A stretch of 64,000 nt of DNA from a virus. Taxonomy: Duplodnaviria > Caudoviricetes. The notes beneath the pieces were generated by a model that was given only the letters and a program-made list of their open reading frames with translations, was not told where the DNA came from and did no database searches. This document shows positions 853-47,897 of the stretch, in pieces. How positions within the stretch are numbered: the first letter of the stretch is position 1; every line of letters begins with the position of its first letter. The stretch spans positions 1 to 64,000 of the IMG/VR virus record IMGVR_UViG_3300047160_004777. One strand, written 5' to 3'. Both the position numbers and the translations under genes were made by a program.

Positions 853-857
853 CCCGT

Positions 858-1100: not shown

Positions 1101-1105
1101 GAGAC

Positions 1106-3018: not shown

Positions 3019-3109
3019 AGCGCGCGGACGGCATAGGGGCGGGCGGCTAAAATATCGGGGCCGCGACGTTGTAGGCGCCCGGCCCCACTGACGCCAAGGA
3101 GGTTGTCCC

Positions 3110-5766: not shown

Positions 5767-5841
5767 AAAAGCGCCGGCCCGTCGGCACGTTGGTCCCGGT
5801 ACGCTGCGGGAGTGCGGACGTACCCAACGGTCAGGCGCGCG

Positions 5842-6000
5842 ATGGCGGCATTGCTCGCTGTCGCCGCCATCGTGTTGGGTGTAGTCGTTATGTTCGACCC
5901 GGACTTTCTCGAAACACGCGTTGTTTTAGGTGTGACGGACGTGTTATTGGGTGTGTCCATCGTGCTCGGTATTGTCGTGATTCGTTCACACTACGACTAG
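5842..6000 (+). CDS. small two-TM membrane protein
   Basis: Two hydrophobic stretches; lies just upstream of the holin-like gene. Confidence 0.55.
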   Translation: MAALLAVAAIVLGVVVMFDPDFLETRVVLGVTDVLLGVSIVLGIVVIRSHYD

Positions 6001-6003
6001 TGC

Positions 6004-6408
6004 ATGGACGTGACCAGCGAACAAATCACGGCGTACCTCGCGCAGTTTCGGTTGGAGTGGGTGGCGCTGTGCGTCATCCTCATCATCCTCGACGTGGCGT
6101 ATCTCGGGTTCCGTACGTTGACGCACAGTGCCCGCGAGCCGTTCGGAGCGTACCTGACTCAGCGAGTGGGAATCCTGCTTCTGTTATTGATCATCGGGCT
6201 TGTTGACTTTCTCATGCCGAACATCCCGCTTCTGTATATGGCGAGCTTGTTTTATTCCGGCGTGAGCGTGCTGCACATTGTCGCACAAGTTCGGGCAGAG
6301 GGAGTCACCGACATTCCGCCATCTTTCCAGAGGCGGGCGGAGCAACTTCGCGGGGAATTGACGCCAGACGATATGGCCCCACCCGGCCCGCCGGATAAAG
6401 GAGCGTAA
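6004..6408 (+). CDS. holin-like membrane protein
   Basis: Three hydrophobic segments and a charged C-terminus; FY...S......G...IP pattern resembles a phage holin family. Confidence 0.55.
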   Translation: MDVTSEQITAYLAQFRLEWVALCVILIILDVAYLGFRTLTHSAREPFGAYLTQRVGILLLLLIIGLVDFLMPNIPLLYMASLFYSGVSVLHIVAQVRAEGVTDIPPSFQRRAEQLRGELTPDDMAPPGPPDKGA

Positions 6409-6413
6409 CAACC

Positions 6414-6632
6414 ATGAGGTTTCCAGTCGGAACCAACCTGCCGAATAAGACCAAGTTGAGCGATGGATCGCACGCCTTTTTGATCCGGCGTGTACCGGCT
6501 CCGGCAACAGGCCACGCGCCCACGAAGAAGACAGCTACGGGGGTGTGCTTGGACGGAGCGAACCCTATTCCGATCCGGGTGTACGCGCTTGGCGACGGGA
6601 CGTACGCGCTCGGGGTGCAGCGACATGGCTGA
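6414..6632 (+). CDS. small hypothetical protein similar to the N-terminus of the adjacent collagen-like protein
   Basis: [19 protein letters not shown] versus [19 protein letters not shown] in the next gene. Confidence 0.6.
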
Positions 6633-8713: not shown

Positions 8714-8848
8714 TGCTCAAGAAGTAACCGCTAAGTACGCGGGGCGAGCGGTCGCGCTAGAATAGAGGGAGCGGGGAGAGCCCCGACTCGCACGAACGTG
8801 GAGGTTAGCGCGAACTCTCTCGTCGGCGTACTTGTGAAAGGGTTACGA

Positions 8849-9136
8849 ATGAGCAAGTTGAGCATCCTCGTGAGCGGCAATCAGTCGCCGGTCGCGGGCA
8901 TCTATCAAAAGTACGGTATCGCCGCGCGGCAAGGCCACACGGTTATTGAGTTCGAGCCCGGTACCGAGCAGGCGCGAACCGCCGCCGCCGTGTTCTCGGA
9001 GTTGACGACGCTCTATCGCTTCACTGGTCTGGCGACGACCGTCGCGGACAACCCGACGCGGATCGAGCGGATCGACCCCGAAGCCATCATGGAGTCGGAA
9101 TACGTGTTGATCCCGCAGATCGCCGGGGGCGCGTGA
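8849..9136 (+). CDS. small protein ending ...PQIAGGA (GG-motif paralog 1)
   Basis: Alignable with 9614 and 10719; GAAAGGG upstream of ATG 8849. Confidence 0.75.
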   Translation: MSKLSILVSGNQSPVAGIYQKYGIAARQGHTVIEFEPGTEQARTAAAVFSELTTLYRFTGLATTVADNPTRIERIDPEAIMESEYVLIPQIAGGA

Positions 9137-9600
9137 TCGACCGACCTCGGGACGCTCGCGGGCGCTATATCAGTCGTTGGATGGTCCAGCCGGGGAGTTC
9201 CCCGGCTGCGGCCAATCCGTTGGAGACGGTCCCCATCGAAAAAATCCAGCACAGCGGACGTTACAAGTCTGCGGATTACAAGGAAGTCATCCGTAAGGTG
9301 CTGGTTGAGCTGCGAGCGGGGAATCAGGTCGAACTCTACGACCGCTATCTTTCGCCGTTTCAGTGGTCGGAGATGGAGCGAACAGGGTGGATTCCGGTAC
9401 GCGGGTCGAAGGGCCACATGTACTTCGTCTGCGCCCTGTACGGCTTTGCCATCTATCAGATCGAAAATTCGCGCGGGTACACCTATTGCTTTCATGTCGG
9501 GAGTGGGGACTACCTAGATTGCGCGATAGCGACCGTCCTACTCATCAGAGCCGACGAGGGACGGTTCCGCGCCGTGGCGAATCGGCAATCCTGTTACTAA
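9133..9600 (+). CDS. partner protein paralog 1 (conserved Cys/Asp domain)
   Basis: GTGA overlap with the upstream gene; domain alignable with 9915 and 10949. Confidence 0.75.
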   Translation: MIDRPRDARGRYISRWMVQPGSSPAAANPLETVPIEKIQHSGRYKSADYKEVIRKVLVELRAGNQVELYDRYLSPFQWSEMERTGWIPVRGSKGHMYFVCALYGFAIYQIENSRGYTYCFHVGSGDYLDCAIATVLLIRADEGRFRAVANRQSCY

Positions 9601-9613
9601 AAACGGGGGTTAT

Positions 9614-9898
9614 GTGAATACGCTCAAGATCATGTCGAACGTGTCGGATCTCCGGCTCAAGGCGCTGTTCCACACCTACGGTATTCCGGTACGCAGCGGT
9701 CACACGGTGATCGAGTACGAGCCGGAAACGGAGAAAGCCGAGGTTGCCAGGGTTGTCTTTGGCCAACTTACGACGCTCTTTCGCTTTACTGCCCTGGAGA
9801 CGACGGTTGCGGGTACTCCCCGGCGTATTACTACGCTCGACACCGATGCCGAGTCGGAGTCGGAAGTTGTCCTCATCCCGGCGATCTGCGGCGGATGA
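9614..9898 (+). CDS. small protein ending ...PAICGG (GG-motif paralog 2)
   Basis: Clear paralog of 8849 (YGI..R.GHTVIE.EP.TE...LTTL.RFT.L.TTVA). Confidence 0.75.
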   Translation: MNTLKIMSNVSDLRLKALFHTYGIPVRSGHTVIEYEPETEKAEVARVVFGQLTTLFRFTALETTVAGTPRRITTLDTDAESESEVVLIPAICGG

Positions 9899-9914
9899 GG
9901 CGCCGCCCGTCCCG

Positions 9915-10292
9915 ATGGAGAAAATCTACAACCGCAACTGTCTAAACGTTGTTCCGGAACCTCCATCGCGACAGCGGCTAACCTATCTCAAGCACAGTGT
10001 TGAAGGTGAGTTGTTCGAGCGGTTTCTCACGCCGTACCAGTGGTCGGAACTCAAGCGCACAGGTTGGGTTCCGGTCCTCGGATCGGCGGGAGGCCACTAC
10101 TACGTCTGTGTCGCACAGAAGATGTTCTACTCGCAAGTGATGCGGTTCGATGGAGAGCGGGGTTGCTCGTACTGCCTGAGTGTCGGCGGGGGCGTAAGCG
10201 TCCGCGACATGGCGATGGCGAAAATCCTGTTGCTTCAGGCCGACGAACCGTACTTCTGTGCGGTTGCAAACGGCACGCGTTGGCGAGTCTAG
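9915..10292 (+). CDS. partner protein paralog 2
   Basis: FLTPYQWSELKRTGWVPVLGS matches YLSPFQWSEMERTGWIPVRGS of 9133; start inferred. Confidence 0.7.
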   Translation: MEKIYNRNCLNVVPEPPSRQRLTYLKHSVEGELFERFLTPYQWSELKRTGWVPVLGSAGGHYYVCVAQKMFYSQVMRFDGERGCSYCLSVGGGVSVRDMAMAKILLLQADEPYFCAVANGTRWRV

Positions 10293-10362
10293 TTTCTGAA
10301 CACGAGACAAGGAGTCGCCTTCGACCCCGCAGCTTCTTGTCTCGTTGATCGGAGGAAGTCAC

Positions 10363-10722
10363 ATGTTGGCGATAGCTGAGCCCAAGACAGAAGAACTGGA
10401 TACACAAACTGTCCTACCGGGCGTCGAAGGGCCGGCCGAATGGCCGACGCGTATCCAGATCAGAGTCACCGACGAGGACATCTTGCTCGGCGCGCGGTCG
10501 AGTATCGAACAGTGCCCGATAGCTCGGGCGTTGCGGCGTTGGGTGTCTCTGAACGGATACCCGGTCGTTGTGATCGAGGTGCGGAACAAGCGCGCTCGCG
10601 TCGGTATGTGGCACTTCCAGCACGACGCCGAGCACTTCGTGCGGAACTTCGATCACAAGAAAGACGTGTACGAAACCTGGGTCAATCTCCGACGAACCAG
10701 GAAAGTGAGCGGTATGCGATGA
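10363..10722 (+). CDS. hypothetical protein
   Basis: GGAGG RBS upstream; I.VT.EDI..G......CPIARAL pattern. Confidence 0.65.
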   Translation: MLAIAEPKTEELDTQTVLPGVEGPAEWPTRIQIRVTDEDILLGARSSIEQCPIARALRRWVSLNGYPVVVIEVRNKRARVGMWHFQHDAEHFVRNFDHKKDVYETWVNLRRTRKVSGMR

Positions 10723-10949
10723 CGGTTAGCGAAATGCGAATTATGGGCGGGTCCGGCGATACGAAGGTGATGTGGGACTCCGAACAGGAAGCGGAAGTGG
10801 AGAACGCGCGTCGTACCTTCAATGACTTGCGCGGTCGCGGCTACGCTGCGTTCGCGGTCCGTACCTCAGGCGAGAAGGGTCGGCAGGTCACCGAGTTCGA
10901 TCCCGAAGCCGAGAAACTTATCATGGTGCCGCAGATCGCGGGTGGTTGA
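10719..10949 (+). CDS. small protein ending ...PQIAGG (GG-motif paralog 3)
   Basis: ATGA overlap with the upstream gene; C-terminus FDPEAEKLIMVPQIAGG. Confidence 0.75.
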   Translation: MTVSEMRIMGGSGDTKVMWDSEQEAEVENARRTFNDLRGRGYAAFAVRTSGEKGRQVTEFDPEAEKLIMVPQIAGG

Positions 10950-11542
10950 TGGCTACCTGGACGACGTGGACCGGCACGTCGAGCGCCACGACCACGGGGA
11001 TCGTCTGGAACTACTGGAACACAGGCGCAGGGAACACCACGACGGTCTATACGGCCGACTTCCCTCAGTTGATATGGGCGAATTGGGTCAACGCGACGGC
11101 AACGACAACGATTGCTTCCGGCTGGAAGAGTCCTACGTATTGTCCGCCTGTTCTCAGTCCCGAAGAACAGGCGGCGGAGCGTGTCGCGCGAGCCGAACGC
11201 GAAGAGCGAGCAGTGAAAGAGCGAGCTGACCACGAACAAGCCGTTCAGCGAGCCGAGATACTGCTCAACGAACATCTGAACGCGGCACAGCGTAGTCAGT
11301 TGAAGGCTCGCGGTCGCTTCAAGCTGCGGTCGCAACGTGGCTCGTGGTACGAGATTCGGCGCGGGCACCACAGCAACGTGGTTCGGTTGAACGAAGATGG
11401 GCAACCGACTGAGACGCTGTGCGTCTACGCGCGGGGCGGCGTGCCCGACGCGGATTGCATGTTGGCGCAGAAGTTGTATCTGGAGATGAACGAAGATCGG
11501 CTGCGCGAGGTAGCGCACATTACGCCAGCAGGGGGCTTTTAG
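10949..11542 (+). CDS. partner protein paralog 3 (Trp/Thr-rich N-terminus, coiled coil, conserved C-terminal domain)
   Basis: TGATG coupling to the upstream gene; LCVYARGGVPDADCMLAQKLYLEMNEDRLREVA aligns with the other partners. Confidence 0.75.
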   Translation: MATWTTWTGTSSATTTGIVWNYWNTGAGNTTTVYTADFPQLIWANWVNATATTTIASGWKSPTYCPPVLSPEEQAAERVARAEREERAVKERADHEQAVQRAEILLNEHLNAAQRSQLKARGRFKLRSQRGSWYEIRRGHHSNVVRLNEDGQPTETLCVYARGGVPDADCMLAQKLYLEMNEDRLREVAHITPAGGF

Positions 11543-16993: not shown

Positions 16994-17902
16994 ATGCGTT
17001 ACATTACGGGTGGCTTGCAACGGGCGCTGCGCGACACGGTCGATCTGACAGGTATCCGGACGATCCGGGTTGATCAGCGGCGGGTGCTCAATCTTGAGGA
17101 GTACAAGCTTCGCGAGGCTGTCGAGTCTGACTTTGGTGAGCTGATTCGAGAGCCATTCCTTCTCTACGAGGGACCGAGGCTGCTCGTCGCGTACTTTCAT
17201 CTCGGCGACAACCGCGAAACGAAGCCGATGCTCGACGCGATCTGGCGCAACCTGCCAGGTATCGACTTCCCCGAGCATTACCGCTCAGACGGATTGCCGC
17301 ACACGTCGCAGACCATTGGCTACTTGCCGCGCGTGACGACCCGGCGCGATTACTGCACCGCGACCAAGACCGCGATGGAGTATCCGGAGGCGCACAAAGC
17401 CATCGTCGCTGCCGCGCCGTGGATCGGGACGTATTACCGTTCGATCAACCCGCGCCTGTTCTTCCGGCATCGGATGCTCGCGACGAAGGTCTTGTCGAGC
17501 TTCCAGATCGAGGGCGGGCCGTTCACGTCCGGCATCATCAACTTCAACAGCCAGCTTCGGTATCACTTCGACAGCGGCAACTTCAAGGACGTGTGGAGCG
17601 CGATGCTCGGCTTCAAGCGCGACATGGGCGGTGGCTACTTGTCGATGCCTGAGTTCGGAATTGCCGCCGAAGTTTGCGACCGTTCGTTGCTGATGTTCGA
17701 CGGCCAGGGCATTCTTCACGGCGTGACCTCGCTCCGTCCGTTGAAGGCTGACGCGAAGCGCTACACCATCGTCTACTACTCGATGGAACAGATGTGGAAC
17801 TGCTTGCCGATAGGCATGGAGCTAGAACGCATCCGTCATCGACGCACCGTCCGGGAGTACAAGCGTGCCGGCCTTGCGCCAGGTTCCGCCGCCTTACCGT
17901 AG
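16994..17902 (+). CDS. TET/JBP-family 2-oxoglutarate/Fe(II) dioxygenase
   Basis: FTSGIIN...LRYHFDSGN (HxD), GGYL.MPE, LLMFDG..ILHGVT (H), RYTIVYY (R). Confidence 0.85.
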   Translation: MRYITGGLQRALRDTVDLTGIRTIRVDQRRVLNLEEYKLREAVESDFGELIREPFLLYEGPRLLVAYFHLGDNRETKPMLDAIWRNLPGIDFPEHYRSDGLPHTSQTIGYLPRVTTRRDYCTATKTAMEYPEAHKAIVAAAPWIGTYYRSINPRLFFRHRMLATKVLSSFQIEGGPFTSGIINFNSQLRYHFDSGNFKDVWSAMLGFKRDMGGGYLSMPEFGIAAEVCDRSLLMFDGQGILHGVTSLRPLKADAKRYTIVYYSMEQMWNCLPIGMELERIRHRRTVREYKRAGLAPGSAALP

Positions 17903-18998
17903 GCCGCAGCTTCCGAAGAATTGGCTGGTCCCGACCAAACTCGCGGACCTCATTCCGAAGTCGCATCGTTTCCGTCCGCAACACAGCCCGGCGTTCATCC
18001 CAGTTCGTAGTGACTGGGACACGCTCAAGCTTTTCGCCGAGAACCTGATGTCCTCGCGGGACATTGACCCCATCTACCCGGTGCTGCGCTCGCTGTACGA
18101 CGCTCGCGGCTACACTGCCGAGGACGCGCTGTGGTGCTCGATCCTGTACGTGACGTTCTACAACTTGCCGAGTGCGCTCGAAGCGCGGCGGCGACTCGGA
18201 CCTTCGCCCGAGCTAAGTCACGAGCGTATCGACCGAACTGAGCTAAGCGACCTGCCCACCGGGGTAGAGCGGCGCGGGATGCGCGGAGCTGGCAAGGTGG
18301 CCCAGTATCTCCACGGCCTCTACGACTGCATACACGAGCCCGTTCCGTCGTATCGGCAGGCGAACCTTACCCGTCATCTGCCGTGGTCGATATCGCCCAT
18401 CGAGCCGGTACGAAGCTGGCTTCGACGCGGCGAGTTGTCGTGGAACTTCACTCCGTGCGAGCGGGGGTATCGCGTGCGGACGAATTACCGCAACTTCCGG
18501 CGTCGATGGGACGCCGTTCCTGGTAACGGGCGATGGTCTGGGTTCAAGCTCGCGGAAATTTTGAGGGTCGTGCATCACATGCCGTATCAGGCGCCGGACA
18601 TGGACCTGGAACACTCGTCGGGACCGAAGGAAGGACTTCAGTGGCTCTACGCGACGCATCAGGAGGACGCCACGGTTCTCAATGGGCTCGCGGAGCAGTT
18701 TCGCTTCTTGATGATGCGGCCGAACTACGACTACCTCGATTGGGAGGTGCTCGAAACGATCTTGTGCAACATGAACTCTCTGGGGACCGGCCACTACTAC
18801 GTTGGCCACGACATAGACGAGTTTCAGGGCCAGATAGAACGGGCCGCGTTGCACAAGGATGACCGACGCGACCTGCTGATCGCTCGCCGCGAGGCGCTGC
18901 CGTACGCTTATCTCGGCGAGCACCACGGATGGTCGGGTGTGCAGCGCAATCGGCTTGCTGCGTGGCGCAACCGGCGGGAGGTGGTACTTCGTCCATGA
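17865..18998 (+). CDS. amino acid:DNA transferase (aGPT-Pplase2/ADDT-like, HhH glycosylase superfamily)
   Basis: DIDPIY, TGVERRGMR, GNGRWSGFKLAEIL, PDM...SSGP.EGL, ETILC...GHYYVGHDIDE. Start codon uncertain. Confidence 0.8.
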   Translation: MPALRQVPPPYRRPQLPKNWLVPTKLADLIPKSHRFRPQHSPAFIPVRSDWDTLKLFAENLMSSRDIDPIYPVLRSLYDARGYTAEDALWCSILYVTFYNLPSALEARRRLGPSPELSHERIDRTELSDLPTGVERRGMRGAGKVAQYLHGLYDCIHEPVPSYRQANLTRHLPWSISPIEPVRSWLRRGELSWNFTPCERGYRVRTNYRNFRRRWDAVPGNGRWSGFKLAEILRVVHHMPYQAPDMDLEHSSGPKEGLQWLYATHQEDATVLNGLAEQFRFLMMRPNYDYLDWEVLETILCNMNSLGTGHYYVGHDIDEFQGQIERAALHKDDRRDLLIARREALPYAYLGEHHGWSGVQRNRLAAWRNRREVVLRP

Positions 18999-19668: not shown

Positions 19669-20377
19669 ACTGCGCTCGCCGGGTCAGGTTCAGGCCGACC
19701 GCGCCAAGATTTCCAATATGTACCTGCGCGGCTTCTCGCTGATGACCATCGCCAACGAGATGGGCGTGTCGAGAGAAAACGTGGCGTACGAGATGGGCAA
19801 GATTCGGAAAGAGTGGCGGGCGTCGGCCGTGTTCGACTTCGCTTTGGCCCGTCAGCAAGAGTTAGCCCGCATCGACCTTATCGAACAGGAAGCCTGGAGA
19901 GCCTGGGAGAACTCGAAGGCGCCTATCGAGGCCACGAGCACGCGTCAGCGGCGGCGCGACCTCAAGTTCCCGATGGCCGTTCCGCGACCCGGCGAGGAAG
20001 CCGAGTTACCCGTGGACTCGGTATCCGAGGCGAACAAGCGCTCGACCATGCGCGACCCGAACGCAGGCTTTTTGGACCGGATCGCATGGTGTGTCGAGAT
20101 GCGCTGCAAGATTCTCGGGCTCGTCGCACCGCAAGAACTGCGGCACACTGGCACGATCCAGCAAATCCACGAAATCTTCTACGAACCCGCCGCGCTCCCG
20201 GATAACGGCCAGGCGAATCGGCTCGTCATCCTCGGCGGCGCTCCGGCCTCGCTCCCCGCCCCGACCGCGCCCCCCGCCGCCCCGGAAGAGCGTCCGGACG
20301 AAGCTACGCCCACCGCGAACGGGCGAGTCTACGCGGAGGATGACGAAGAGCTAGACGACGACGACGAGGCTGAGTGA
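19658..20377 (+). CDS. terS: terminase small subunit
   Basis: N-terminal HTH (YLRGFSLMTIANEMGVSRENV), ELARID..E.EAW.AW, RCKILGL; immediately upstream of terL. Confidence 0.8.
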   Translation: MPARLRSPGQVQADRAKISNMYLRGFSLMTIANEMGVSRENVAYEMGKIRKEWRASAVFDFALARQQELARIDLIEQEAWRAWENSKAPIEATSTRQRRRDLKFPMAVPRPGEEAELPVDSVSEANKRSTMRDPNAGFLDRIAWCVEMRCKILGLVAPQELRHTGTIQQIHEIFYEPAALPDNGQANRLVILGGAPASLPAPTAPPAAPEERPDEATPTANGRVYAEDDEELDDDDEAE

Positions 20378-22863
20378 GCGTGCCGCGCGCAGCTGTCGCG
20401 GCTACACCCTCGCTCGCGCCCCGCGTTATCGCGAAGCGTCCCAAGTCCCCGACCTCGCCGTGGTGGATCGAGGATATCGGCCAAGGGCGCGGAAGAATCT
20501 GCACGAGTCTGCATCCCGGTCAGATGGCCGTGATGAAGTCCGCCAGTCGATTCACCGCCATGATAGCCGGGACCCAAGGAGGTAAAAGGCTCGACATAAA
20601 TACACCAATCCCGACACCGACCGGCTTCAAGCCGATGGGAAGTCTGGAGATTGACGACCTCGTCATCGGGTCGGACGGGTTGCCCACGAAGGTGACGTAC
20701 GTGTCGCCTATCGAATGGAGCGGGATTACCTACCGCCTGCGATTCGATGACGGAACTTCTGTATTAGCCGACGCCGAACATCTCTGGGTAACGCAAACTC
20801 GCGCTGAGCGGAAGAACGAGGCGCGGTTCGTAGTCGAGCGTAAACATCCGAAGCGGGGTGGCCACAATCGACAGCAATCTAGCGGCGTCAGGACGACCCA
20901 GGAGATTGCCGATACATTAGCCCGCTACGGTGCGGCGAATCATAGTCTGGCGATCTCAATCGGGCCGGATTTGGCGGAAACCGATTTGCCGATCCCGCCG
21001 TATACGTTGGGCGTTTGGCTGGGCGACGGCACGTCGAGTTCCGCCACCATTACTACCGCCGACCCGGAAGTGCTGGAAGCCATAGCTGCCGAAGGTATAG
21101 CCATAGGCGTTGCCAAAGAAGTCAATGCCGGCGTCGCGCGAGGTTACCGGCTGGGCGGAAAAGCCGGCCGAGCACGGAATGCGTTCGGCCAATGGGCTGG
21201 CGGCGAGACGTTGAACGCCAAACTTCGCGCGGGCGGACTACTTGGGAACAAGCATATTCCGATTGAGTATCTGTTCGGCTCGCGAGCGCAGCGATTAGCT
21301 CTAGTCCAGGGCCTTATGGATACTGACGGCTATGTCGGTCCGAGAGGGCAAGGAGCAAGGTGCGAGTACGTCACAACAAGCTTTCGGCTAGCGGGCGACG
21401 TAGCCACGTTGCTTCGTTCGCTAGGAATCAAGGTGCGCGTGGCCGAAAAGCAGCCATACCTCCACGGAAAACCTACGCGCCTCGCTTATCGTCTCGCATT
21501 TACAACCTCGGCGCCAGTCTTTCGTTTGCCGCGCAAAGCGGCCAAGATACGCGAACGCCAGCGATCAGACACGCGTCGGCGCTTCGTTGTGGCTTGCGAT
21601 CCGGCCCCCAGTGTGCCGATGCGTTGTATTACCGTGGGCGCGTCCGACGGGCAGTACCTTTGTACTACCGCCTACATCACGACCCATAACACCAGCCTCG
21701 GACCCATGTGGTTGGAACGCGAGATACGCAATCGCGGCGCCGGCGATTACCTCGCGGTCACGGCGACGTTCCCGCTGCTCAAGCAAAAGATGCTTCCTGA
21801 GTTCATTCACTACTTCAGGGATGCGCTCCAGCTCGGCTACTACGCTCGTGGCGAGCGCACGTTCTACTTTCACGACAATGAGACGCGCGTGATGTTCGGC
21901 TCGGCGGCACATCCCGAGTCTTTGGAATCGGCGACCGCGAAAGCTGCGTGGCTAGACGAGGCCGGCCAGTACCAGTTCCGCCTGGAATCGTGGGAAGCCG
22001 TCCAGCGCCGCGTTTCTCTCTTCCAAGGCCGCGTCCTCATTACGACCACGCCGTACAACCGAGGTTGGCTCAAGACCGAGATTTACGACCGTGCCGCTGA
22101 TGGCGATTCGACCTTCCAGGTGGTGCAGTTCGCTTCGACGCTCAACCCATCTTTCCCGGCCGAAGAGATGGAGCGCGTCAAGCGCTCGGGTACGCAGCTG
22201 TGGAAGATAAGGATGTTTTATGAGGGGCTGTTCGATCAGCCGCCCGGCCTTATATTTCAGTCATACATTGATACATACCGCGAGTCTGGCGGACATCTTG
22301 TACGGCCGTTTCCGATCCCACCGTGGTGGCCGCGCTACGTCGGTGTTGACTTCGGTGGCACGAACACCGCCAAGGTCTACCTGGCGCACGACCCGGCGGC
22401 GGCGGTTTACTACCTGTACATGGAGGACTTGAGCGGGCATAAGACCGCTGCCCAGCACGCGCACGAGGTCCTCAACCATATCGGCGAGGGCATCCTCGCG
22501 GGTATTTGGGGCGGCGCGAAGTCCGAGAGCGCGTGGCGGCTAGAGTGGGCGGCGGCGGGCGTCCCGATGCAAGAGCCGGACGTGTACGACGTTGAGATTG
22601 GCCTCGACCGCGCCGTCGGTTTGTTCAGTTCTAACCGTCTATTCGTGTTTGAGACGTGTCGCGGTATCCGTGATGAGCTAGGCACGTATTCTCGACAAGT
22701 CGCGCCGGACGGCACGGTATTACCCACGATTCAGGACAAGAACACCTATCACCGCATTGACGCGTTGCGAGCCTTGTCGCTCGGCATCGGCGGACCCCCA
22801 ATGCCACAACCGTTGCTAGCGTTTGGCGCGGCTAAAGGTTGGCAGCCCAGGATGCTCCGCTAG
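20374..22863 (+). CDS. terL: terminase large subunit containing an intein
   Basis: Walker A GTQGGK|T split by the intein; Walker B AWLDEAG; ITTTP; nuclease GVDFGG and HRIDALR. Confidence 0.95.
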   Translation: MSVPRAAVAATPSLAPRVIAKRPKSPTSPWWIEDIGQGRGRICTSLHPGQMAVMKSASRFTAMIAGTQGGKRLDINTPIPTPTGFKPMGSLEIDDLVIGSDGLPTKVTYVSPIEWSGITYRLRFDDGTSVLADAEHLWVTQTRAERKNEARFVVERKHPKRGGHNRQQSSGVRTTQEIADTLARYGAANHSLAISIGPDLAETDLPIPPYTLGVWLGDGTSSSATITTADPEVLEAIAAEGIAIGVAKEVNAGVARGYRLGGKAGRARNAFGQWAGGETLNAKLRAGGLLGNKHIPIEYLFGSRAQRLALVQGLMDTDGYVGPRGQGARCEYVTTSFRLAGDVATLLRSLGIKVRVAEKQPYLHGKPTRLAYRLAFTTSAPVFRLPRKAAKIRERQRSDTRRRFVVACDPAPSVPMRCITVGASDGQYLCTTAYITTHNTSLGPMWLEREIRNRGAGDYLAVTATFPLLKQKMLPEFIHYFRDALQLGYYARGERTFYFHDNETRVMFGSAAHPESLESATAKAAWLDEAGQYQFRLESWEAVQRRVSLFQGRVLITTTPYNRGWLKTEIYDRAADGDSTFQVVQFASTLNPSFPAEEMERVKRSGTQLWKIRMFYEGLFDQPPGLIFQSYIDTYRESGGHLVRPFPIPPWWPRYVGVDFGGTNTAKVYLAHDPAAAVYYLYMEDLSGHKTAAQHAHEVLNHIGEGILAGIWGGAKSESAWRLEWAAAGVPMQEPDVYDVEIGLDRAVGLFSSNRLFVFETCRGIRDELGTYSRQVAPDGTVLPTIQDKNTYHRIDALRALSLGIGGPPMPQPLLAFGAAKGWQPRMLR
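20587..21690 (+). mobile_element. class-3-type intein (368 aa) with LAGLIDADG homing endonuclease
   Basis: Starts RLDINTPIPTPTG, block B DAEHLW, block F PMRCITV, ends YITTHN before Thr; LGVWLGDG and QGLMDTDG motifs. Confidence 0.9.
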
Positions 22864-39669: not shown

Positions 39670-42600
39670 TGCCGCCACGCGGCGGCACGCCTACCCCAGC
39701 AGGCGGCGGCGGAGGCGAGGGCGGCGCAGGTGCCGGCGGAGCCGGAGCCGGGGCTGAGATTGCGAGGCTGTACGCCTCAGTTGGTTTAGACGCCAGCGAG
39801 TTTCTCGCCGAGATCGCCAATATCGAGAGCGCGACTGCCGAGGTAGCGAGTCGGCAGACGCAATACGTCCGAGCCATTCAGCAGCAATGGCAGCGGATGG
39901 GCCAAGGCGGGGCGGCGAGCGGATACCTCCGTTCCATCGAGCAGGCGGTTCAAGGTGGGCAATCGCTCGCGCAAGCGTTCGCCGGCGCCAACACGTCGAT
40001 GCAACGCACGCAGCAAACTCTCGCCAATATCGGCGAGGCGCTGCGAGCGACAGGCGGCAACACGCAAGCGTCGGGGTTGCTGCGTACAAGCCAGGCGCTC
40101 ATGCGAGCGGGCGCGAGTGTCGAGGATACGTTCTCGGCGCTCAAGCAGATGCGCTACTCGACTCAGGACATTCAGAACGTCCTGGGACCGCTCACGCAGG
40201 GCATTGGACAAGCGACCGCAGCCCAAAAGGGATTGAACGCGGCGGTAGCCGAAGGCAACGACCTCCAGCGCGAGCAGCAGCGAATTGCCCGCGCCGAAGC
40301 GCAGCTCGCTTCGCAAGCTCGTTCAATTCAGAGACGGTCGGCGGCTCCTGAGGTTGAAGCCCGTGTTCGGGCGCTGCGCCGGTTCCAAGACCCGAATCTC
40401 GATTGGGCCGAGCGCACCCGAGCCTTCAGCGGACGCGCTGGTGGCGAGTTCATGGCGGCGGCGCAAAAGGCCGCGCTCACCGATACCGTCTCGATCCTTG
40501 GCTCGCGATACCGCGTTACGCGCCAGAACGAAACACAAGTTCGGGCTCTGGCAGCGGCCGAAGCCGAGCTAATCGCCCGCGAGCGGCAGCTTCAGCAGGA
40601 AATTACCGGGACTGCCCGCGCCTACGCTGAGTCCGCAGCGCAATACGAGCGGTTCATGGGCCAGGCGGCTCAGCGAACCGGGGTCGGGACGTTCCGCGCC
40701 GAGGAACGCCAGGCTCAGCAGCAGATTGCCCGGTTTGCCCAAGGCGCGTACTACCGGCCCGAAGCGCCGACACCACCCGAGGCCGGCGGGTATCTTCCGA
40801 TTGTCGGGGTAGGCGCCCCGCCGCCCGTCGCGTCCCGTACGGGCGTCCGGACGAGCCGTAGAGGGGCTCCGGCCGGGGCGGCGGCGGGAGTCGGCGCCCC
40901 GGTTCCGGCTCCTGCTGCTGCGCCTCCTCAGACCGCCGCGCCGACTCCCGCACCAACTCCCGCTCCGACCCGTCAGGAGGCGTACAGCCAGCTTCTCCGG
41001 CAGCAGCAACAGCTCGAACGCGAGACAGGACTTCCCGTCTTTCGTGGTGGGCAAACGGCGCGGCCGAGAGGTGTTTCGGCCGAGGAATGGCAGAGTTATT
41101 TCCAGATTGGCGGCGGGGGCGGCGCTCCAAGCGAATCAACGCTCACTGAAGTCGCGGCCGACATCAAGAGCGAAATCGACGCGCTTGATGTTCAAATCAA
41201 GAGTGGCTCATCTGCGCTTCGAGTTGGTCGCGAGTCGGGCGGCATGTCTCGGCCGGAGCGCCAGGCCGCCGCTGCGTCGCTCACTCGCGACAAGTTCCGT
41301 CTTGAACAACTGCGTGCTCGACTGAGCGCAGAGCAGCGGCAAGGTCCCACCAACCCGCCAATCCAGCGTTACGGCGATGAGCCAGAAGAAGCCGAGTACC
41401 GCGCCATTGGCGGCGTCGTCGGTGGTGGCGGCCGCTACATCGTTGGCGAGCAAGGCCCAGAACTATTCGTCCCCGGACGCGCCACTGGTGGTCCCGTTAC
41501 CAGTCCAGAAGGTCGGGTTCTCCAGAACGTTTTCGCGGGTGATCCGCTTCGCGGCGGGCGACGAGCCCTCGGGTTCCAGGGCCGACGGTCGCGCTCGCTC
41601 ATGGCGCAGCTTCCGGGTTGGAAGAGTCCGAGCTACTTCGAGATTACGCCGCAGACCAAGACGGTTCCTGAGCAGTTCCGTGGGATGCAGCGAATCCGCG
41701 ACAACCCGAATTACCAGCTAGAAGTCAATCCTCGAAGTGGTCTCGGCTACGTCCAGTGGATCAGTGTCCCCGAAGCGCAGCGCGGTACCGGAGCCGGCGG
41801 CGGTCTGTATCGCGACATTGCCGAGCAAGCGGCTCAGCGCGGCTGGCGTATCTTCAGCGGCCTCGACCGACAGCGGGGCGCACGTCTTTCGCTCGAACGA
41901 GCAGCTAGTCAGGGCCTTGTCCATGTAACGCGTCGGCCAGTGGGCTTTGATACGTCGCTGCTAGGCGGCGAAGGGCATCGGTTCCTTGATGAGATCATGC
42001 TCCCGCGTGCGACTGGCGGTCGGGTGTATCCGCTCGGTCCCCGTCAGCTTGCTCGGCAGCTTACGGAACGTGCCGGAACACTCGCGCCGAGTATGGCGCT
42101 TCGCGAGCTGTACACGTACTTCCCGCGTGGTGCGCTTCACCTCGTCCAGCCGGCGGCACTCGGCTTCCAGCCTGGTCAGGAACTACCCAACTTCGCGAAG
42201 CCACTCGCGGGTTTCCTTGAGCGACAAGGTCACGTTCTTCGCTCCGGCGGGCTAACGCCGCATCAGGTAGCGGCGGGCTATCTCACCACGCTCGCGTCCA
42301 TTCGTGGTCGCGAGGCGCCGGCGGGCAACGTTTTCCAGCGGCTCGGCGGACGGATACCGGGCATTCTGTCGCGAGGGCGCGGACGCGGCGTAGTCCGACC
42401 CGAAGATTTGATGGCGCACTTCCTGGGTCAGGAAGAAAACCGCCATCTCTACGACAAGCTCTTCGCCGGAAATGCCGGCCCGATGCAAGCCGCTATCGAG
42501 GACCTGGGTAATCGCAGCGGCTTCACGTTCCTTCGCACGCCGCAGGCGTTTCAGCCGGCTGCGCCGGGCTCGTACTCGCTTCACAACATCGGCGCAGCGA

Positions 42601-45600
42601 CCGCAGCACTCAACACGGCGGGTCGGCAGGGAGCCTCGCCCGACGAGATGTCCGCGATCCTGGGCTCGTTCCAGGGTGTTGGTTACGGCAAGGCCGGTTT
42701 TCTCGGCCAGTGGCTCGGATACGGGCGAATCCCGACAGTCGATACCAACGTTCTTCAGCGCTGGCTTGGCTCGGAGCGCTATGGGCAAGTCGCACAACGA
42801 GCCGCATCCGCGACCGCGACCGGGCTCGGGATGCGAATGCGCTCGCTCATCAGTGGGCGCTACGACGAGATGCGGCGGATGGGCGTATTCCCCGGATTGT
42901 CCGAGGACATCTACAACGCTATCGCCCATCACGTCACGTTCTCGACGGGTGTTCAGGCCGAAACGACGCATCAGCCGGTCATCTCCACGATGGAGAGCCT
43001 GGGTCGCGCTCGGGCGCGCGGCGGCGAGGCCGGAAGCGGCGCGTACCTCGTTGGCGAACAGGGGCCGGAACTCTTTGTTCCTGAACGAGCTGGCTATGTC
43101 CTCAACCGCAAGGACACTCTCCGCGCTCTAGGTGCCGAAGCTCGACAAACTGGCGGCCCGGTGTATGTGCCGACAGCGCCCTACGGCGTGGTGGGTGGTC
43201 GTCCGCCGATTGGTACGTTCCGGACTCCGACTGGTGTTACCGCCGGTCAGGTCCAGTATGGCGCGGCGAACGTCGCAACTCCGGTGCAAGCAGCAGCGGC
43301 CGAATCCGCCGCGCGAGCCTGGGGTGAATTAGCCGCCGTTCAGCTCACGGTTATCAATCATTACGAGCAGATCGCGCGAGCGTCGCAACGTTCCGCCGAA
43401 CAACAGATTGCTGCGGCCCGCGAAGTTCAGGACCGCGCACTTCGGTCCCAGCCGACTCAGTTAGCCCGGTTTATCGCGCAGACGCAGGCGCGGGCGCTTC
43501 AGGGGCCGACCGCGCAGTACGGCGGCGCGATGTTCGACGTTACGGCAGCGAACCGCGCTCAGCTTGTTCAAGCACGCGCCTTAGAACAAACGAAAGCTGA
43601 ACAACAGCGACAGGCGCAGGAGCAATTTGACGAGGATGCGCGTCGCGAGCAGATTCGACTGCGGTCGAGCCCTGCTGCGCTACAGGCTCAGCGTCAGATA
43701 GCGGCAGCACAGCCTCGACGCGCACCGCTGGTCGAAGGCGCTCGTGCGGGCGAATACGTCGAAGTCACGCCTCAGAACGTGCAGGACGTGCGTAGGCTTC
43801 GACAGGAACGCTTCAGCCGCGAGCAGCAAGCGCAGCAGGAGCAGGAACGAGCCGAACGCGCCACGGCTCCCCGCACGAACATCTTTCGCCGCATCCAAGG
43901 CACCATCGAAGGCGGCATCGACCCGGCGCAGGCGCTTACCGGGCGTCAGGCAAACATCGTTCGTATCGGCGCCGGTCTGCTCGGTGTCCCGCTCGGTATC
44001 AACGTTGCGGCCGGCTTAGCGCGACTGCTCCACACGGCGCTCGCGCAGGTCGCTGACGACGCCGAACACATCAACCGCTCGTTCGCGCAACTGGCCGCGA
44101 GCATGGGTGGTCTTACTGCCCAAACGCGCGACTTCGTTTCGAGCCTGTCTACCGCTTCGGGGTATCTCCAGACCAACGTAGCGTCGTCGCTCGCCCTCGC
44201 GAACAACATGACCACGACGGTCGGGGCGACAACGCAGCAGAACCAAGAACTGACGCAGATCGCGACGCAATTTGCGCAGCTCAACAACATCCCGCAGGAA
44301 CAGCTACCCCAGGTAACTCAGCAGATCACGCAGCTCGCGATGCGCGGCGGTGCTGCGCCGGCGTTGGGCATTAGCGACATTGATCGGTACCTCCAGCAGC
44401 AAGGGATCAACGTTGCCGGTCTGACTCCGCAGCAAGCGACGCAGCAGCGCATTCAAGCACTCCAAGCGATGGGCGGTCGCGGTATGGGGGCGGCGCTCGG
44501 TACGCCGGAAGGCACCGCCGCTCTTCAAGCCGAACAAGCTGCCAGGAACCGCGAGGAGGTGCAGAACGTTCTCGGCCGGGGCGCCGGCCAGGCCCTCCAA
44601 AACATCGGGACGGCAGCCAACTCCGCGATCAGCGGGTTGGGTCATTTGGTTCCCGGAATCCAGAGTCAGATTGACGCGAATAACCAGTTAGCTCAATCGA
44701 CCCAAGCTGCGGCGACCAGCGCGAGCCAAGCCGCCGATAACTTCACGGCGCTTGGTGGAGCGGTAGCCGCCGCTCGACTCGATCCGGTAACAGGTGTTCT
44801 CGCGCGGCTCCAGGCAATTCAGGGGAACATCGCGACTGCCGGACCAATCGCGGAAGCCTATCGCGCCGCTCCGCAACTCCTGACTCCAGCGCAGATTCGC
44901 GGTCAAGCCGAAATTGAAACGGAGCAGGCTGTTGCCGCGCAGCAGGCGGTACAGGTTGCTCAAGCGCGACCCGGCGGTGAGGGCGCTGCGGAGCGAGCCG
45001 AGTTAGAGAAGCGGTACCAGGACGCACTCGTTTCGGGCGATCAGCAGCGGATCACGGACGCGAGGGAGTTACTCAATCTCCACGACCGGCTGACCGCTTC
45101 GATGCAGGCGCAAGTCGCCGCGACACAAGCAGTCCAGGTCGCCCAGATAGCGCAGGGTCGCGCTCAGTACCAGATCGACCAGATCACTTTTGCGGATCGG
45201 CGGCGACAACTCGACGTAGCTAATCAGCAGGCCGCGATTCAGATAGGCGTCTTGCAGCTCGATAGTCAGATCGCTCAGGTCGGCGAGCGCCAACAATTGG
45301 TCCAGAATCGGCTGACCGTTGCGTCGCGCGACAACCTGGCGATTCGGCGGAATGTTCTCCAGACGCAACTCGACGGATTAGCTGCCGAACAACGACTTCA
45401 GGACATTCAATTCCAAGGTCAGGCGGCTCAAGCCCAACTCGGGGCTATCGGCGCGCGCATGGTGCGAGGCACGGCGACCGCTGGCGACATTGGCAGTATC
45501 GGCGACCTCGCCCAGCAGTCCATCAATGCCACGCTGGATGCGGCGGAAGCCCAACCAGAGGCTCTGGCCGCCGCACATAAGAATGTCGTAGCGCAGCGGG

Positions 45601-47897
45601 CTCAGACACGCGACGAACTCCAACGTCAGTTGATGCCCGGCGGCATCATCGACCTGACGCAGCAGCAGCGCGACCTCGAAGACATCGCCATGCGGCTGAC
45701 CGAACGTCGGACGCACGAGCAGAACATCGCGGACGAGATTCAGCGCCAACTTGATATCGCGGTACGGCAAGAGCAGCCGCAACGAACCGCCGCCGAACAA
45801 GCCAAGCTCATTGCGGACCAGGATTTCGCCGCAGCGAACAACATGCTGAATTGGGCCAACGCGATCAAGCTTGGCCTCGACTACACCGGCGACCTCCACG
45901 CCGCGTGGCAGAGCATCTACAACCTCGTTGATCAGACGATCAACCGCGCGCAGCAAATTGGCACGTACCAGGCGGCGGGCGGAGTTGGGACTCCGCAACA
46001 GCCCGGCGGTGCGCCAGGTGCGGTCATCAATCCGGGCGGCGGGGTCGGAAATCAACCGTACGGTCCAGCCGTGGTGCCGGGAGCCGGCGGAGCGGCAGGC
46101 GGCGGCGACCAGATTCCGCAGATGTCGCCGGTGGAGCAAGCTGCCTGGCTAGTAGCAGGCGGTGTTGGCGCCGGGGTCGGTGTTTACGGAGTCACGCACA
46201 TTCTTCCGGCGGTCGGCGGTCGGATTCTTGGTGCGGCAGGTAGGGCGCTCGGACTCGGTGGCGGCCCCGGCGGCGGCAGGTTGGGTGTGCAAGAGGCGCC
46301 GACCGCTGTCGAGGGAGCACCAGCCGCTGAAGCTGGGGCCGAGGCCGCGACATCAGCCGCTGAGGCTGCGACTGGTGCGGAAGCTGCCGGAGCCGGCGCG
46401 GAAGCTGCGGCGGCTTCTGCGGCCGAAGCAGCGGCAGTCGTAGAAGGCGGTGCGGCAGCCGCACCCGAGGTCGCCGGTGCTGCTGGCACTGCCGCCGCCG
46501 TTGCGGGCGGTATCGGTGGTGGGACTTTGCTCGCCGGGGGAGCTGTTGTCGCAGGTAGCGCAGCGACGCTCTACGGCATCCAGCAGTCGGCCGAGCAGCT
46601 CAACGCGATGCGGGCACAGCTCGCCGGATTGCCCGAAGAGCAGCGAGCGGCGGTGCTGGCGGAGATGGACCGCCGCTCCCAAGGACAAACCTTGTTTGGT
46701 GGCGACCGCCAAGCGATGCTCAACGCGATTCTGGCCGGAGGGGCTCAGAATCTTCAGCCGGCGACGCCCGAGCAAATCGCGGCGATGCGCCAGAGCGCCG
46801 AGTGGCGGACGCAAGGTCCTACCGGCGGTCAGCAGTTCCTTCAATGGGCCGGCGGGTTGTTTGGTGGCGGTCAGGGACAGCCAGACCAGGCAGCGGCGCA
46901 AGCGCAGACAGATGCGGCGACGGATCAAACGCGCGCTGCCCAAGATCAGACCACAGCCGCGAACGACCAGACGACCGCTGCCCAGCAGCAAGCGCAAGCC
47001 GCGAATCAGGCCAACGATGCGGCGGCGCAAGCGGCAGCGTCCGTCGCTCAGGCCAACGACGCGGCAGCGGCAGCAGCGGCTTCGGCGGCACAGGCCCAGA
47101 CAGCGGCGGCTCCCGGCGCTCCGGCTCCCGCGCCGCAGCTTGCGCCAGGTCAGTTGCCACCGGGAGCCGAGGAGCCGGTACCAGTGCCGGCGGCCGGACC
47201 AGCACCGCAAGATGCGCAAGCTCAAGCGCAAGCGACAGATCAGCTCAATGCGGCACTTCAGACCGAAGCCGCCGCGCAGCAATCCACCGCAGATGCGGCC
47301 GCTGCCTGGCTCGCAACCCTTCAGGCTACGCAAGAGCCGCTGACGAGCACGGCCACGACCGCGCAGAACATCGCGGATTCGACTCAGAGCACGTCAGACT
47401 CGGCAGCGGCCTGGCTTCAGACGATTCGAGATGCTCAGCCACCGCTGAACGACACAGCAAACCTGCTGGCCGCGATGCAACAGTCGGCGCAGCAGATCGA
47501 CACTTCCGCGAGCAGCTTCTCGAATTCTATGGCGGCTGTCGCGGCAAATATGGCGAATGCGGCGGCGGCTGCGGCCGCGTTGCGCGACATGCTGGCGGCG
47601 GCGGCCCAATCTGTTCTTGAGATGGGTGGCGGCGCTCCACCACCAGGGCAACCACCCGTCGCCGGAGTCCCGACGCCCGCGCAGCCGGTCGCGGCGCCCA
47701 TCACTACAACCGCAGCCACACAAAGTGGCGGGGTGAACTTCGGCAATGTCCAGGTAAATGTTCAGCCTCAGCCAGGTGAGTCGAACGAGCAACTGATAGA
47801 CGACCTGACCGCCGAGTTTCGACGCCAGATGATCCAGGTGTTCCAGCTCGCGAATGTACCGGCGGCGCCGAGTTTGGCCGGGGTGATCGCGCAATGA
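39669..47897 (+). CDS. tape measure protein (2742 aa) with embedded GNAT-like and HhH glycosylase-like domains
   Basis: EIARLYASVGLDASEF N-terminal motif, Ala/Gln-rich helical body, two GG.V...Y.VGEQGPELFVP motifs. Confidence 0.9.
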   Translation: MPPRGGTPTPAGGGGGEGGAGAGGAGAGAEIARLYASVGLDASEFLAEIANIESATAEVASRQTQYVRAIQQQWQRMGQGGAASGYLRSIEQAVQGGQSLAQAFAGANTSMQRTQQTLANIGEALRATGGNTQASGLLRTSQALMRAGASVEDTFSALKQMRYSTQDIQNVLGPLTQGIGQATAAQKGLNAAVAEGNDLQREQQRIARAEAQLASQARSIQRRSAAPEVEARVRALRRFQDPNLDWAERTRAFSGRAGGEFMAAAQKAALTDTVSILGSRYRVTRQNETQVRALAAAEAELIARERQLQQEITGTARAYAESAAQYERFMGQAAQRTGVGTFRAEERQAQQQIARFAQGAYYRPEAPTPPEAGGYLPIVGVGAPPPVASRTGVRTSRRGAPAGAAAGVGAPVPAPAAAPPQTAAPTPAPTPAPTRQEAYSQLLRQQQQLERETGLPVFRGGQTARPRGVSAEEWQSYFQIGGGGGAPSESTLTEVAADIKSEIDALDVQIKSGSSALRVGRESGGMSRPERQAAAASLTRDKFRLEQLRARLSAEQRQGPTNPPIQRYGDEPEEAEYRAIGGVVGGGGRYIVGEQGPELFVPGRATGGPVTSPEGRVLQNVFAGDPLRGGRRALGFQGRRSRSLMAQLPGWKSPSYFEITPQTKTVPEQFRGMQRIRDNPNYQLEVNPRSGLGYVQWISVPEAQRGTGAGGGLYRDIAEQAAQRGWRIFSGLDRQRGARLSLERAASQGLVHVTRRPVGFDTSLLGGEGHRFLDEIMLPRATGGRVYPLGPRQLARQLTERAGTLAPSMALRELYTYFPRGALHLVQPAALGFQPGQELPNFAKPLAGFLERQGHVLRSGGLTPHQVAAGYLTTLASIRGREAPAGNVFQRLGGRIPGILSRGRGRGVVRPEDLMAHFLGQEENRHLYDKLFAGNAGPMQAAIEDLGNRSGFTFLRTPQAFQPAAPGSYSLHNIGAATAALNTAGRQGASPDEMSAILGSFQGVGYGKAGFLGQWLGYGRIPTVDTNVLQRWLGSERYGQVAQRAASATATGLGMRMRSLISGRYDEMRRMGVFPGLSEDIYNAIAHHVTFSTGVQAETTHQPVISTMESLGRARARGGEAGSGAYLVGEQGPELFVPERAGYVLNRKDTLRALGAEARQTGGPVYVPTAPYGVVGGRPPIGTFRTPTGVTAGQVQYGAANVATPVQAAAAESAARAWGELAAVQLTVINHYEQIARASQRSAEQQIAAAREVQDRALRSQPTQLARFIAQTQARALQGPTAQYGGAMFDVTAANRAQLVQARALEQTKAEQQRQAQEQFDEDARREQIRLRSSPAALQAQRQIAAAQPRRAPLVEGARAGEYVEVTPQNVQDVRRLRQERFSREQQAQQEQERAERATAPRTNIFRRIQGTIEGGIDPAQALTGRQANIVRIGAGLLGVPLGINVAAGLARLLHTALAQVADDAEHINRSFAQLAASMGGLTAQTRDFVSSLSTASGYLQTNVASSLALANNMTTTVGATTQQNQELTQIATQFAQLNNIPQEQLPQVTQQITQLAMRGGAAPALGISDIDRYLQQQGINVAGLTPQQATQQRIQALQAMGGRGMGAALGTPEGTAALQAEQAARNREEVQNVLGRGAGQALQNIGTAANSAISGLGHLVPGIQSQIDANNQLAQSTQAAATSASQAADNFTALGGAVAAARLDPVTGVLARLQAIQGNIATAGPIAEAYRAAPQLLTPAQIRGQAEIETEQAVAAQQAVQVAQARPGGEGAAERAELEKRYQDALVSGDQQRITDARELLNLHDRLTASMQAQVAATQAVQVAQIAQGRAQYQIDQITFADRRRQLDVANQQAAIQIGVLQLDSQIAQVGERQQLVQNRLTVASRDNLAIRRNVLQTQLDGLAAEQRLQDIQFQGQAAQAQLGAIGARMVRGTATAGDIGSIGDLAQQSINATLDAAEAQPEALAAAHKNVVAQRAQTRDELQRQLMPGGIIDLTQQQRDLEDIAMRLTERRTHEQNIADEIQRQLDIAVRQEQPQRTAAEQAKLIADQDFAAANNMLNWANAIKLGLDYTGDLHAAWQSIYNLVDQTINRAQQIGTYQAAGGVGTPQQPGGAPGAVINPGGGVGNQPYGPAVVPGAGGAAGGGDQIPQMSPVEQAAWLVAGGVGAGVGVYGVTHILPAVGGRILGAAGRALGLGGGPGGGRLGVQEAPTAVEGAPAAEAGAEAATSAAEAATGAEAAGAGAEAAAASAAEAAAVVEGGAAAAPEVAGAAGTAAAVAGGIGGGTLLAGGAVVAGSAATLYGIQQSAEQLNAMRAQLAGLPEEQRAAVLAEMDRRSQGQTLFGGDRQAMLNAILAGGAQNLQPATPEQIAAMRQSAEWRTQGPTGGQQFLQWAGGLFGGGQGQPDQAAAQAQTDAATDQTRAAQDQTTAANDQTTAAQQQAQAANQANDAAAQAAASVAQANDAAAAAAASAAQAQTAAAPGAPAPAPQLAPGQLPPGAEEPVPVPAAGPAPQDAQAQAQATDQLNAALQTEAAAQQSTADAAAAWLATLQATQEPLTSTATTAQNIADSTQSTSDSAAAWLQTIRDAQPPLNDTANLLAAMQQSAQQIDTSASSFSNSMAAVAANMANAAAAAAALRDMLAAAAQSVLEMGGGAPPPGQPPVAGVPTPAQPVAAPITTTAATQSGGVNFGNVQVNVQPQPGESNEQLIDDLTAEFRRQMIQVFQLANVPAAPSLAGVIAQ

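Follow-up and report, generated by a model that had tools for sequence, protein, structure and literature searches.

We analyzed a stretch of 64,000 nucleotides (nt; positions 1 to 64,000, hereafter the window) of a 79-kb IMG/VR virus record, IMGVR_UViG_3300047160_004777 (Duplodnaviria; Caudoviricetes), whose late region contains a gene that we assign, from its sequence and setting, to a siphophage tail tape measure protein of 2742 amino acids (aa). A block at aa ~575-1163 interrupts the Ala/Gln-rich helical rod of this protein and is built from a common tape-measure repeat module, with two globular domains in between. The first (insert 1, or domain 1) resembles a small GNAT-type acyltransferase; the second (insert 2, or domain 2) resembles the Ogg2 8-oxoguanine glycosylase/lyases of the helix-hairpin-helix (HhH) superfamily HhH-GPD. 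Taken as a whole, with the module block, the GNAT, the Ogg2-like domain, their delivery into the host and their predicted activities, we give this reading of an enzyme-bearing tape measure a probability of roughly 0.6.

Gene order, size, composition and the repeat module are our grounds for the tape-measure assignment. This is the longest gene of the tail module and it is located between the tail-tube and tail-tip genes. Genes for a major head protein (30981), a tail terminator (36658) and an Ig-domain protein (37991) lie before it, and the tail-fibre gene (58915) comes after it. Its product is Ala/Gln-rich at aa 1-577 and 1178-2742, and Gly/Arg/Leu/Pro-rich at aa 578-1177. The whole 2742-aa protein has no match in Pfam. 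Among tape-measure family models, only the repeat module matches PHROGs, and weakly so (two tape-measure PHROGs, E 0.016-0.019, over a 40-aa piece). Several relatives bearing the same repeat module carry PF09718.

Fold, signature residues and family of the second insert

An AlphaFold2 model of insert 2, computed from an alignment with 23 shorter homologues, is all-helical and confidently predicted (predicted local distance difference test, pLDDT, 89.3; predicted template modelling score, pTM, 0.88). When this model was scanned against 48,161 representative PDB chains, the top 22 were all HhH-GPD enzymes, with unrelated chains appearing from rank 23 on; the best representative chain was TM1821 of Thermotoga maritima (Z 14.3). 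Alignments with VIA-align gave Z 15.2 for the DNA-bound Ogg of Methanocaldococcus jannaschii (3KNT_D; root-mean-square deviation, rmsd, 3.1; 199 of 206 residues), 14.4 for TM1821 (3N0U) and 14.2 for the apo Ogg 3FHF. The score falls from 14-15 for Ogg2 enzymes to ~9 for OGG1, EndoIII, MagIII and QNG1. Over the Ogg2 set (Z 14.2-15.2, rmsd 3.1-3.3) the matches cover 199-205 of ~207 residues, that is, the whole two-lobed all-alpha fold of HhH-GPD proteins. We consider the fold assignment of this model firm.

The hairpin, loop and Asp that mark the superfamily are also found at their expected places. An HhH-like string begins at aa 1001 (nt 42669). In the numbering of the modeled segment, the hairpin pattern h-x-x-h-x-G-h-G-x-x-x-A reads L218-G-S-F-Q-G224-V-G226-Y-G-K-A230 and lies between model helices 212-219 and 227-236. 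It is followed by a Gly/Pro loop ending in an Asp (G238-Y-G240-R-I-P243-T-V-D246), which stands 20 residues past the hairpin Gly, exactly as D138 follows G118 in Escherichia coli endonuclease III (Nth, PF00730). The stretch L218..G224-V-G226..A230..V245-D246-T247 aligns with L113..G116-V-G118..A122..V137-D138-T139 of Nth, with no gap from G116 to T139 and with identical G-V-G, A and V-D-T. Because this hairpin-to-Asp stretch aligns gaplessly, D1025 (D246 of the segment) falls on the catalytic D138 of Nth. D1025 is invariant in every alignment of the family, and K1008 is invariant in alignments A1, A2, A4, A5, A6 and A8. Among members only 22-30% identical, a Lys, a Gly, a Phe and the Asp are invariant, and R-P-E, a Trp, an Asn, H-H and T-T-H are invariant or almost invariant. 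An earlier note, made from the letters alone, had seen a resemblance to the motif of HhH DNA glycosylases in this insert; the confident model, the Z of 15.2 to Ogg2 and the signature Asp bear out the HhH-GPD glycosylase fold.

The domain also departs from its closest structural counterparts. It shares with the Ogg2 enzymes a helix-hairpin-helix, a Gly/Pro loop and an Asp that caps the following helix, but sequence identity is 8-9% and there is no profile match. It has ~45 extra N-terminal residues, an Arg/Gly loop insertion, a Lys shifted by one residue and its own family invariants (RPE, HH, TTH). Ogg2 enzymes are free-standing, whereas the phage domain forms part of a 2742-aa virion protein. 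Structural similarity to endonuclease III is lower (Z 7.1 for 2ABK, 9.5 for EndoIII-3 of Deinococcus radiodurans), and the phage domain lacks the 4Fe-4S cluster motif.

Several observations weigh against the glycosylase interpretation. PF00730 gave no match at E <= 10 in either the protein scan or a six-frame scan of the genome, a scan that was positive for 14 of 14 control genomes. Searches of PDB sequences and profiles with the insert 2 family returned chance matches only and no glycosylase, and an hhalign comparison of the family with E. coli Nth gave a probability of 0.4%. Foldseek found nothing in the PDB at E <= 0.001 (E > 0.1), with Ogg and AGOG chains among the weak rows. Helical models often reach middling Z scores by chance, although a Z of 15 over 199 of 206 residues is well above that level. 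At the residue level, K1008 (K229 of the segment) lies one position past K120 of Nth, so that the usual place of the Schiff-base Lys of bifunctional glycosylases, two residues past the hairpin G-h-G, is held by G228, and the G-h-G hairpin varies within the family, reading G-A-S in one distant member. A structural search of BFVD with insert 2 returned uncharacterised phage proteins only. On the strength of the model, then, fold, hairpin, loop and Asp place insert 2 in the superfamily, while the Pfam model does not recognize it.

The same features bear on two other views of what the domain does. It could be a non-catalytic DNA-binding module whose HhH-GPD scaffold keeps hold of host DNA or of the end of the phage DNA while ejection proceeds, in the way of a pilot protein. 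HhH motifs bind the DNA backbone independently of sequence, and such a role would suit the Lys lying off the canonical nucleophile position, the varying hairpin glycines of one member and the missing sequence-level tie to active glycosylases. Yet the invariant Asp occupies exactly the catalytic position, and the Glu of RPE, the Asn and two His, all invariant across 22-30% identity, look more like an active site than a backbone-binding surface, which makes this view unlikely. Alternatively, domain 2 might act on something other than damaged bases, as a hydrolase of nucleosides or nucleotides in the manner of QNG1/DUF2419 or as a DNA-base transferase resembling the amino-acid:DNA transferases, with a host signal, the nucleotide pool or modified DNA as possible targets. 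The QNG1 structures give the longest aligned stretches (221-238 residues, Z 9.0-9.2), the glycinyltransferase of phage PaMx11 (8Z2M) is matched at Z 4.7, and the invariant His and Glu of the family differ from those of known glycosylase families. We nevertheless regard this as unlikely, though a serious rival like the DNA-binding role, given that the Ogg2 DNA glycosylases score far better (Z 14-15) and that hhalign relates the family to the amino-acid:DNA transferase (ADDT) of the phage itself with a probability of just 0.25%. A DNA-directed glycosylase or lyase role, as predicted from the model, is most likely for domain 2.

A phmmer search with insert 2 against 1.8 billion representatives yielded 255 matches, and a ~270-aa domain matching aa ~837-1112 is present in 113 of 153 retrieved proteins (>100 homologous clusters). 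Scans of both inserts and of 45 homologues found no model in Pfam, PHROGs or NCBIfam that covers it. Domain 2 belongs to a family of the HhH-GPD superfamily that is unnamed and largely restricted to phages. Its bearers are mostly 2000-6000 aa long, and nine IMG/VR loci encoding it all show open frames of 1500 to >4200 aa. In a scan of 21 bearers, companion domains identified in individual proteins were ART-PolyVal (two proteins), ddrB-ParB, ResIII, methyltransferases, HipA_2 (a HipA-like kinase), GNAT, SLT, M23, NlpC/P60 and glucosaminidase. When 185,579 prokaryote species, represented by one genome each, were scanned with two patterns, the first found nothing and the second a single Myxococcales metagenome-assembled genome contig, which is weak evidence that the family may be rare outside viral contigs. 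Locus L008 (IMGVR_UViG_3300002220_000004) is a phage genome of 42,199 bases with direct terminal repeats, rated 100% complete, in which a single protein with the glycosylase-like domain takes up at least 11.5 kb (open frame, at least 3823 aa).

Repeat module and the GNAT-like first insert

Five RxxGG motifs punctuate the block: RAIGG at aa 578 (nt 41400), RATGG at aa 604 (nt 41478) and aa 780 (nt 42006), RARGG at aa 1115 (nt 43011) and RQTGG at aa 1159 (nt 43143). VGEQGPELFVP occurs twice, at aa 592 and aa 1128. All these motifs stand at the reported places. R[AQ]xGG is strongly enriched, with 6 occurrences against 0.8 +/- 0.9 expected (none of 2000 protein shuffles reached 6), and the looser RxxGG occurs 7 times against 2.7 expected (P = 0.02, protein shuffles).

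These two motifs proved to be parts of a single repeat unit of ~50 aa. A hidden Markov model (HMM) was built from 75 copies in other proteins, whose consensus is F-G-G-A-R-A-A-G-G-P-V, five residues, Y-L-V-G-E-K-G-P-E-L-F-V-P and ~20 more residues. The module was found in 44 retrieved proteins, in 1-7 copies each, and 40 of these proteins are devoid of a glycosylase-like domain. In the tape measure of the window, the module is complete in two places (aa 575-606 and 1112-1163) and present as a stub beginning R-x-T-G-G-x-V in three (aa 604, 780 and 1159). Domain 2 and the module are combined in only four of the retrieved proteins: the present one (P0001), P0010/L017, P0011 and P0012. In P0010/L017 and P0011 the same module follows or surrounds the glycosylase-like domain. 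The contig that encodes P0011 (L003) holds the nearest full-length tape-measure relative, of 3002 aa, and several glycosyltransferase genes are scattered among its structural genes. The modules of P0001 lie at 21% and 41% of the protein length, most other bearers having theirs in the C-terminal half; its C-terminal 1580 aa (aa 1164-2742, positions 43158-47897) contain no repeat module. A resemblance of the module to the C-terminus of lambda gpH, seen by eye, is not supported by the HMM, which gave no match even with its filters off.

The earlier note had further proposed that the RAxGG motifs bracket the inserts and are perhaps sites at which two enzymes are released. The bracketing is real, but RAxGG is the start of a widespread module, which explains it without cleavage. 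Some points speak for proteolytic release: the motifs are enriched and flank each domain, the phage encodes small proteins ending in GG, the tail protein Tal of the lactococcal phage Tuc2009 sets free a lysin domain by Gly-rich self-cleavage, and lambda gpH, too, is trimmed in the course of assembly. However, with the motif opening a module that occurs in 44 proteins, 40 of them lacking the glycosylase-like domain, and with the small proteins ending in P-Q-I-A-G-G or P-A-I-C-G-G, a different context, we find cleavage at these sites very unlikely. The simplest account of the arrangement, as read from sequence, is that globular domains have been placed between copies of a repeated linker-like unit.

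The closest relative, L017, is 60% identical over aa 770-1187 and comes from a contig of 2 kb with a frame that is open throughout. It has the module core and a single RATGG and then runs straight into domain 2, the whole GNAT block being absent. With a single RATGG and no GNAT in L017, the ~170-aa GNAT block is an indel, and the two RATGG stubs form its limits. A recent DNA duplication of the two RATGG sites was considered and rejected on account of the three synonymous positions at which their codon strings differ. Given these differences, and with no longer DNA repeat, RATGG is kept at the protein level.

Insert 1 itself gives weak direct signals. A GNAT-like string starts at aa 695 (nt 41751), and R705-G-T-G708-A-G710, following Y-V-Q-W-I-S-V, has the form of motif A (R/Q-x-x-G-x-G/A after strand 4) and aligns with motif A of the GNAT 2G3A. 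Against a GNAT assignment, Acetyltransf_CG (PF14542) scored 15.1 bits (E 0.025), below its cut-off of 30, and Acetyltransf_1 (PF00583) 13.2 bits (E 0.11), below 20.7. The best PDB match of the insert alone, 2G3A, has an E-value of 1, and its AlphaFold2 model, from an alignment of two sequences, is unusable (pLDDT 42.9). Two database searches found no homologue, either of the insert or of the linker preceding it (aa 605-659), and look-alikes in a protein atlas were weak (best 0.88, GNAT clusters 0.78).

In contrast to these scores, homology through intermediates points to a GNAT. The core around Y-V-Q-W-I-S-V-P-E-A-Q-R-G-T-G aligns with aa 1444-1507 of P0022, just upstream of the domain 2 of that protein, and insert 1 is 50% identical over 34 aa to a GNAT segment in a protein of >2700 aa encoded by L015. 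Both homologues exceed the PF00583 cut-off (30.6 bits for P0022, 29.7 bits for L015), and the L015 GNAT is followed by an ART-PolyVal-like stretch. At E <= 1, a profile of the three sequences retrieved 28 PDB sequences, which are GNAT acetyltransferases almost without exception, the best again being 2G3A (E 3.8e-5). The same profile detected this GNAT type in two more domain 2 bearers, P0081 and P0104. There it occupies other positions, and it is therefore a recurrent companion of domain 2 rather than part of a fixed cassette. The L015 protein, whose GNAT is the nearest to insert 1, has the textbook make-up of a polyvalent protein: its open frame (L015 positions 2-8101) comprises a helicase-like region, an N6-methyltransferase-like motif (N-P-P-F), the GNAT and the ART-PolyVal-like stretch.

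Domain 1 could instead be a decayed GNAT remnant or a linker that neither binds acyl-CoA nor has activity, a doubtful but serious possibility. Its Pfam scores below cut-off, its pLDDT of 43, its lack of homologues in both searches and its absence from L017 would all be consistent with decay. Nonetheless, motif A (R-x-x-G-x-G) is well preserved together with the strand and helix that flank it, a bona fide polyvalent-protein GNAT has the identical string V-P-E-A-Q-R-G-T-G, and the same type stands beside domain 2 in P0022, P0081 and P0104. Of the GNAT reading made earlier, motif A and the relationship to polyvalent-protein GNATs hold up, whereas its own Pfam scores stay below cut-off and its fold model is of no use. 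Insert 1 (aa ~660-775) is thus a putative small GNAT-type acyltransferase domain of the polyvalent-protein kind, by transitive homology only.

Predicted delivery and action in the host

Phages are known to inject ready-made proteins, among them polyvalent proteins, Alt and IPI of T4 and the RNA polymerase of N4. Tape measures exit the tail before the DNA, so that the few copies present in each virion would carry both domains into the host as the DNA enters, in a manner like that of polyvalent proteins. By this analogy, ready-made enzymes probably enter the cell together with the phage DNA. A folded domain of ~30 kDa speaks against this course of events as it is too large for the lumen of the tail tube; the protein must then be unfolded there or be located elsewhere in the virion, and the domains would have to refold after passing through the tail. 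Once inside, the HhH-GPD domain would most likely bind DNA, flip a base and cut its N-glycosidic bond, possibly with lyase action, and the GNAT domain would most likely acylate a host protein.

More tentatively, the unnamed HhH-GPD family as a whole may consist of phage-specific injected glycosylase/lyases or related base-flipping enzymes that are carried in tape measures and other giant ejected proteins and directed at host DNA or at nucleic acid related to defence. If so, they would act within the first seconds of infection, before phage genes are expressed, and would add a new arm to counter-defence by phages or to their takeover of the host. Should domain 2 be active, DNA base chemistry could be an immediate-early weapon, and the domain would offer a defined 280-aa fragment with two obvious targets for point mutants.

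The comparison with polyvalent proteins is close in several respects. In both cases a giant protein that is delivered from the virion, as predicted here, holds several effector domains (Iyer et al. 2017, PMC5512222). The GNAT of insert 1 is of the type found beside ART-PolyVal, which corresponds to one of two GNAT families in that survey, and ART-PolyVal, ddrB-ParB, helicase and methyltransferase domains occur in the same proteins as homologues of domain 2. The carrier differs, being here a tape measure with repeat modules. It had been said that polyvalent proteins carry both GNAT and HhH domains; the survey describes the former, whereas a glycosylase is neither listed nor mentioned (PMC5512222). 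Our literature searches returned no report of a base-excision-type enzyme in a tape measure.

Tape measures with SLT, M23 or NlpC/P60 domains likewise embed an enzymatic domain, and some of the giant proteins homologous to ours carry such hydrolases too, but the fold found here is that of a nucleic-acid enzyme. With no lysozyme, SLT or peptidase fold among the top structural matches, we reject a cell-wall hydrolase reading of the inserts.

A glycosylase had also seemed to be tied to base modification by the phage itself. Genes for a Tet/JBP dioxygenase (PF12851) and an ADDT (PF18724) lie side by side at positions 16994-18998 of the window, and their adjacency suggests that the phage probably hypermodifies a pyrimidine. 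The tie is not a general one: Tet_JBP and ADDT are absent from all five other phages with domain 2 (three of them at least 96% complete), while the controls were positive.

Feature coordinates and other genes of the window

Coordinates of the tape measure gene and its parts in the window.
Feature	Position	Strand	Basis
Tail tape measure gene P0001, 2742 aa	39669..47897	+	Single open frame
Repeat-module copy A, aa 575-606: RAIGG, Y-I-VGEQGPELFVP, RATGG stub of a further copy	41391..41486	+	Module HMM match
Arg/Gly/Pro-rich linker, aa 605-659, probably disordered	41481..41645	+	pLDDT 26-32 in insert-1 model
GNAT-like domain, aa ~660-780; motif A R705-G-T-G708-A-G710	41646..42008	+	Sub-threshold Pfam and transitive homology
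RATGG stub between the two domains, aa 780-784	42006..42020	+	Sequence; L017 comparison
HhH-GPD (Ogg2-like) domain, aa ~825-1101	42141..42971	+	AlphaFold2 model and structural matches
K1008 codon, invariant Lys, first turn of second HhH helix	42690..42692	+	Alignments and model
D1025 codon, invariant Asp after Gly/Pro loop	42741..42743	+	Alignments; caps model helix 247-254
Repeat-module copy D, aa 1112-1163: RARGG, Y-L-VGEQGPELFVP, terminal RQTGG stub	43002..43157	+	Module HMM match

Elsewhere in the window, the C-termini of three small proteins encoded at positions 8798-11542 read P-Q-I-A-G-G-A, P-A-I-C-G-G and P-Q-I-A-G-G, respectively. A pair of these proteins are each followed by a partner with a common Cys-containing pattern (F-L-S/T-P-x-Q-W-S-E, G-W-x-P-V), and the follower of the third is without it. 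Any link between these proteins and the RAxGG motifs of the tape measure would be pure speculation.

The large terminase gene (20374-22863, 829 aa) has LAGLIDADG matches at aa 306-382, ahead of a Terminase_6N match at aa 474-635, which suggests an intein or an endonuclease insertion. Finally, the early region encodes a 731-aa protein (6490-8685) with eight matches to the collagen triple-helix repeat (PF01391, E 1.4e-61).

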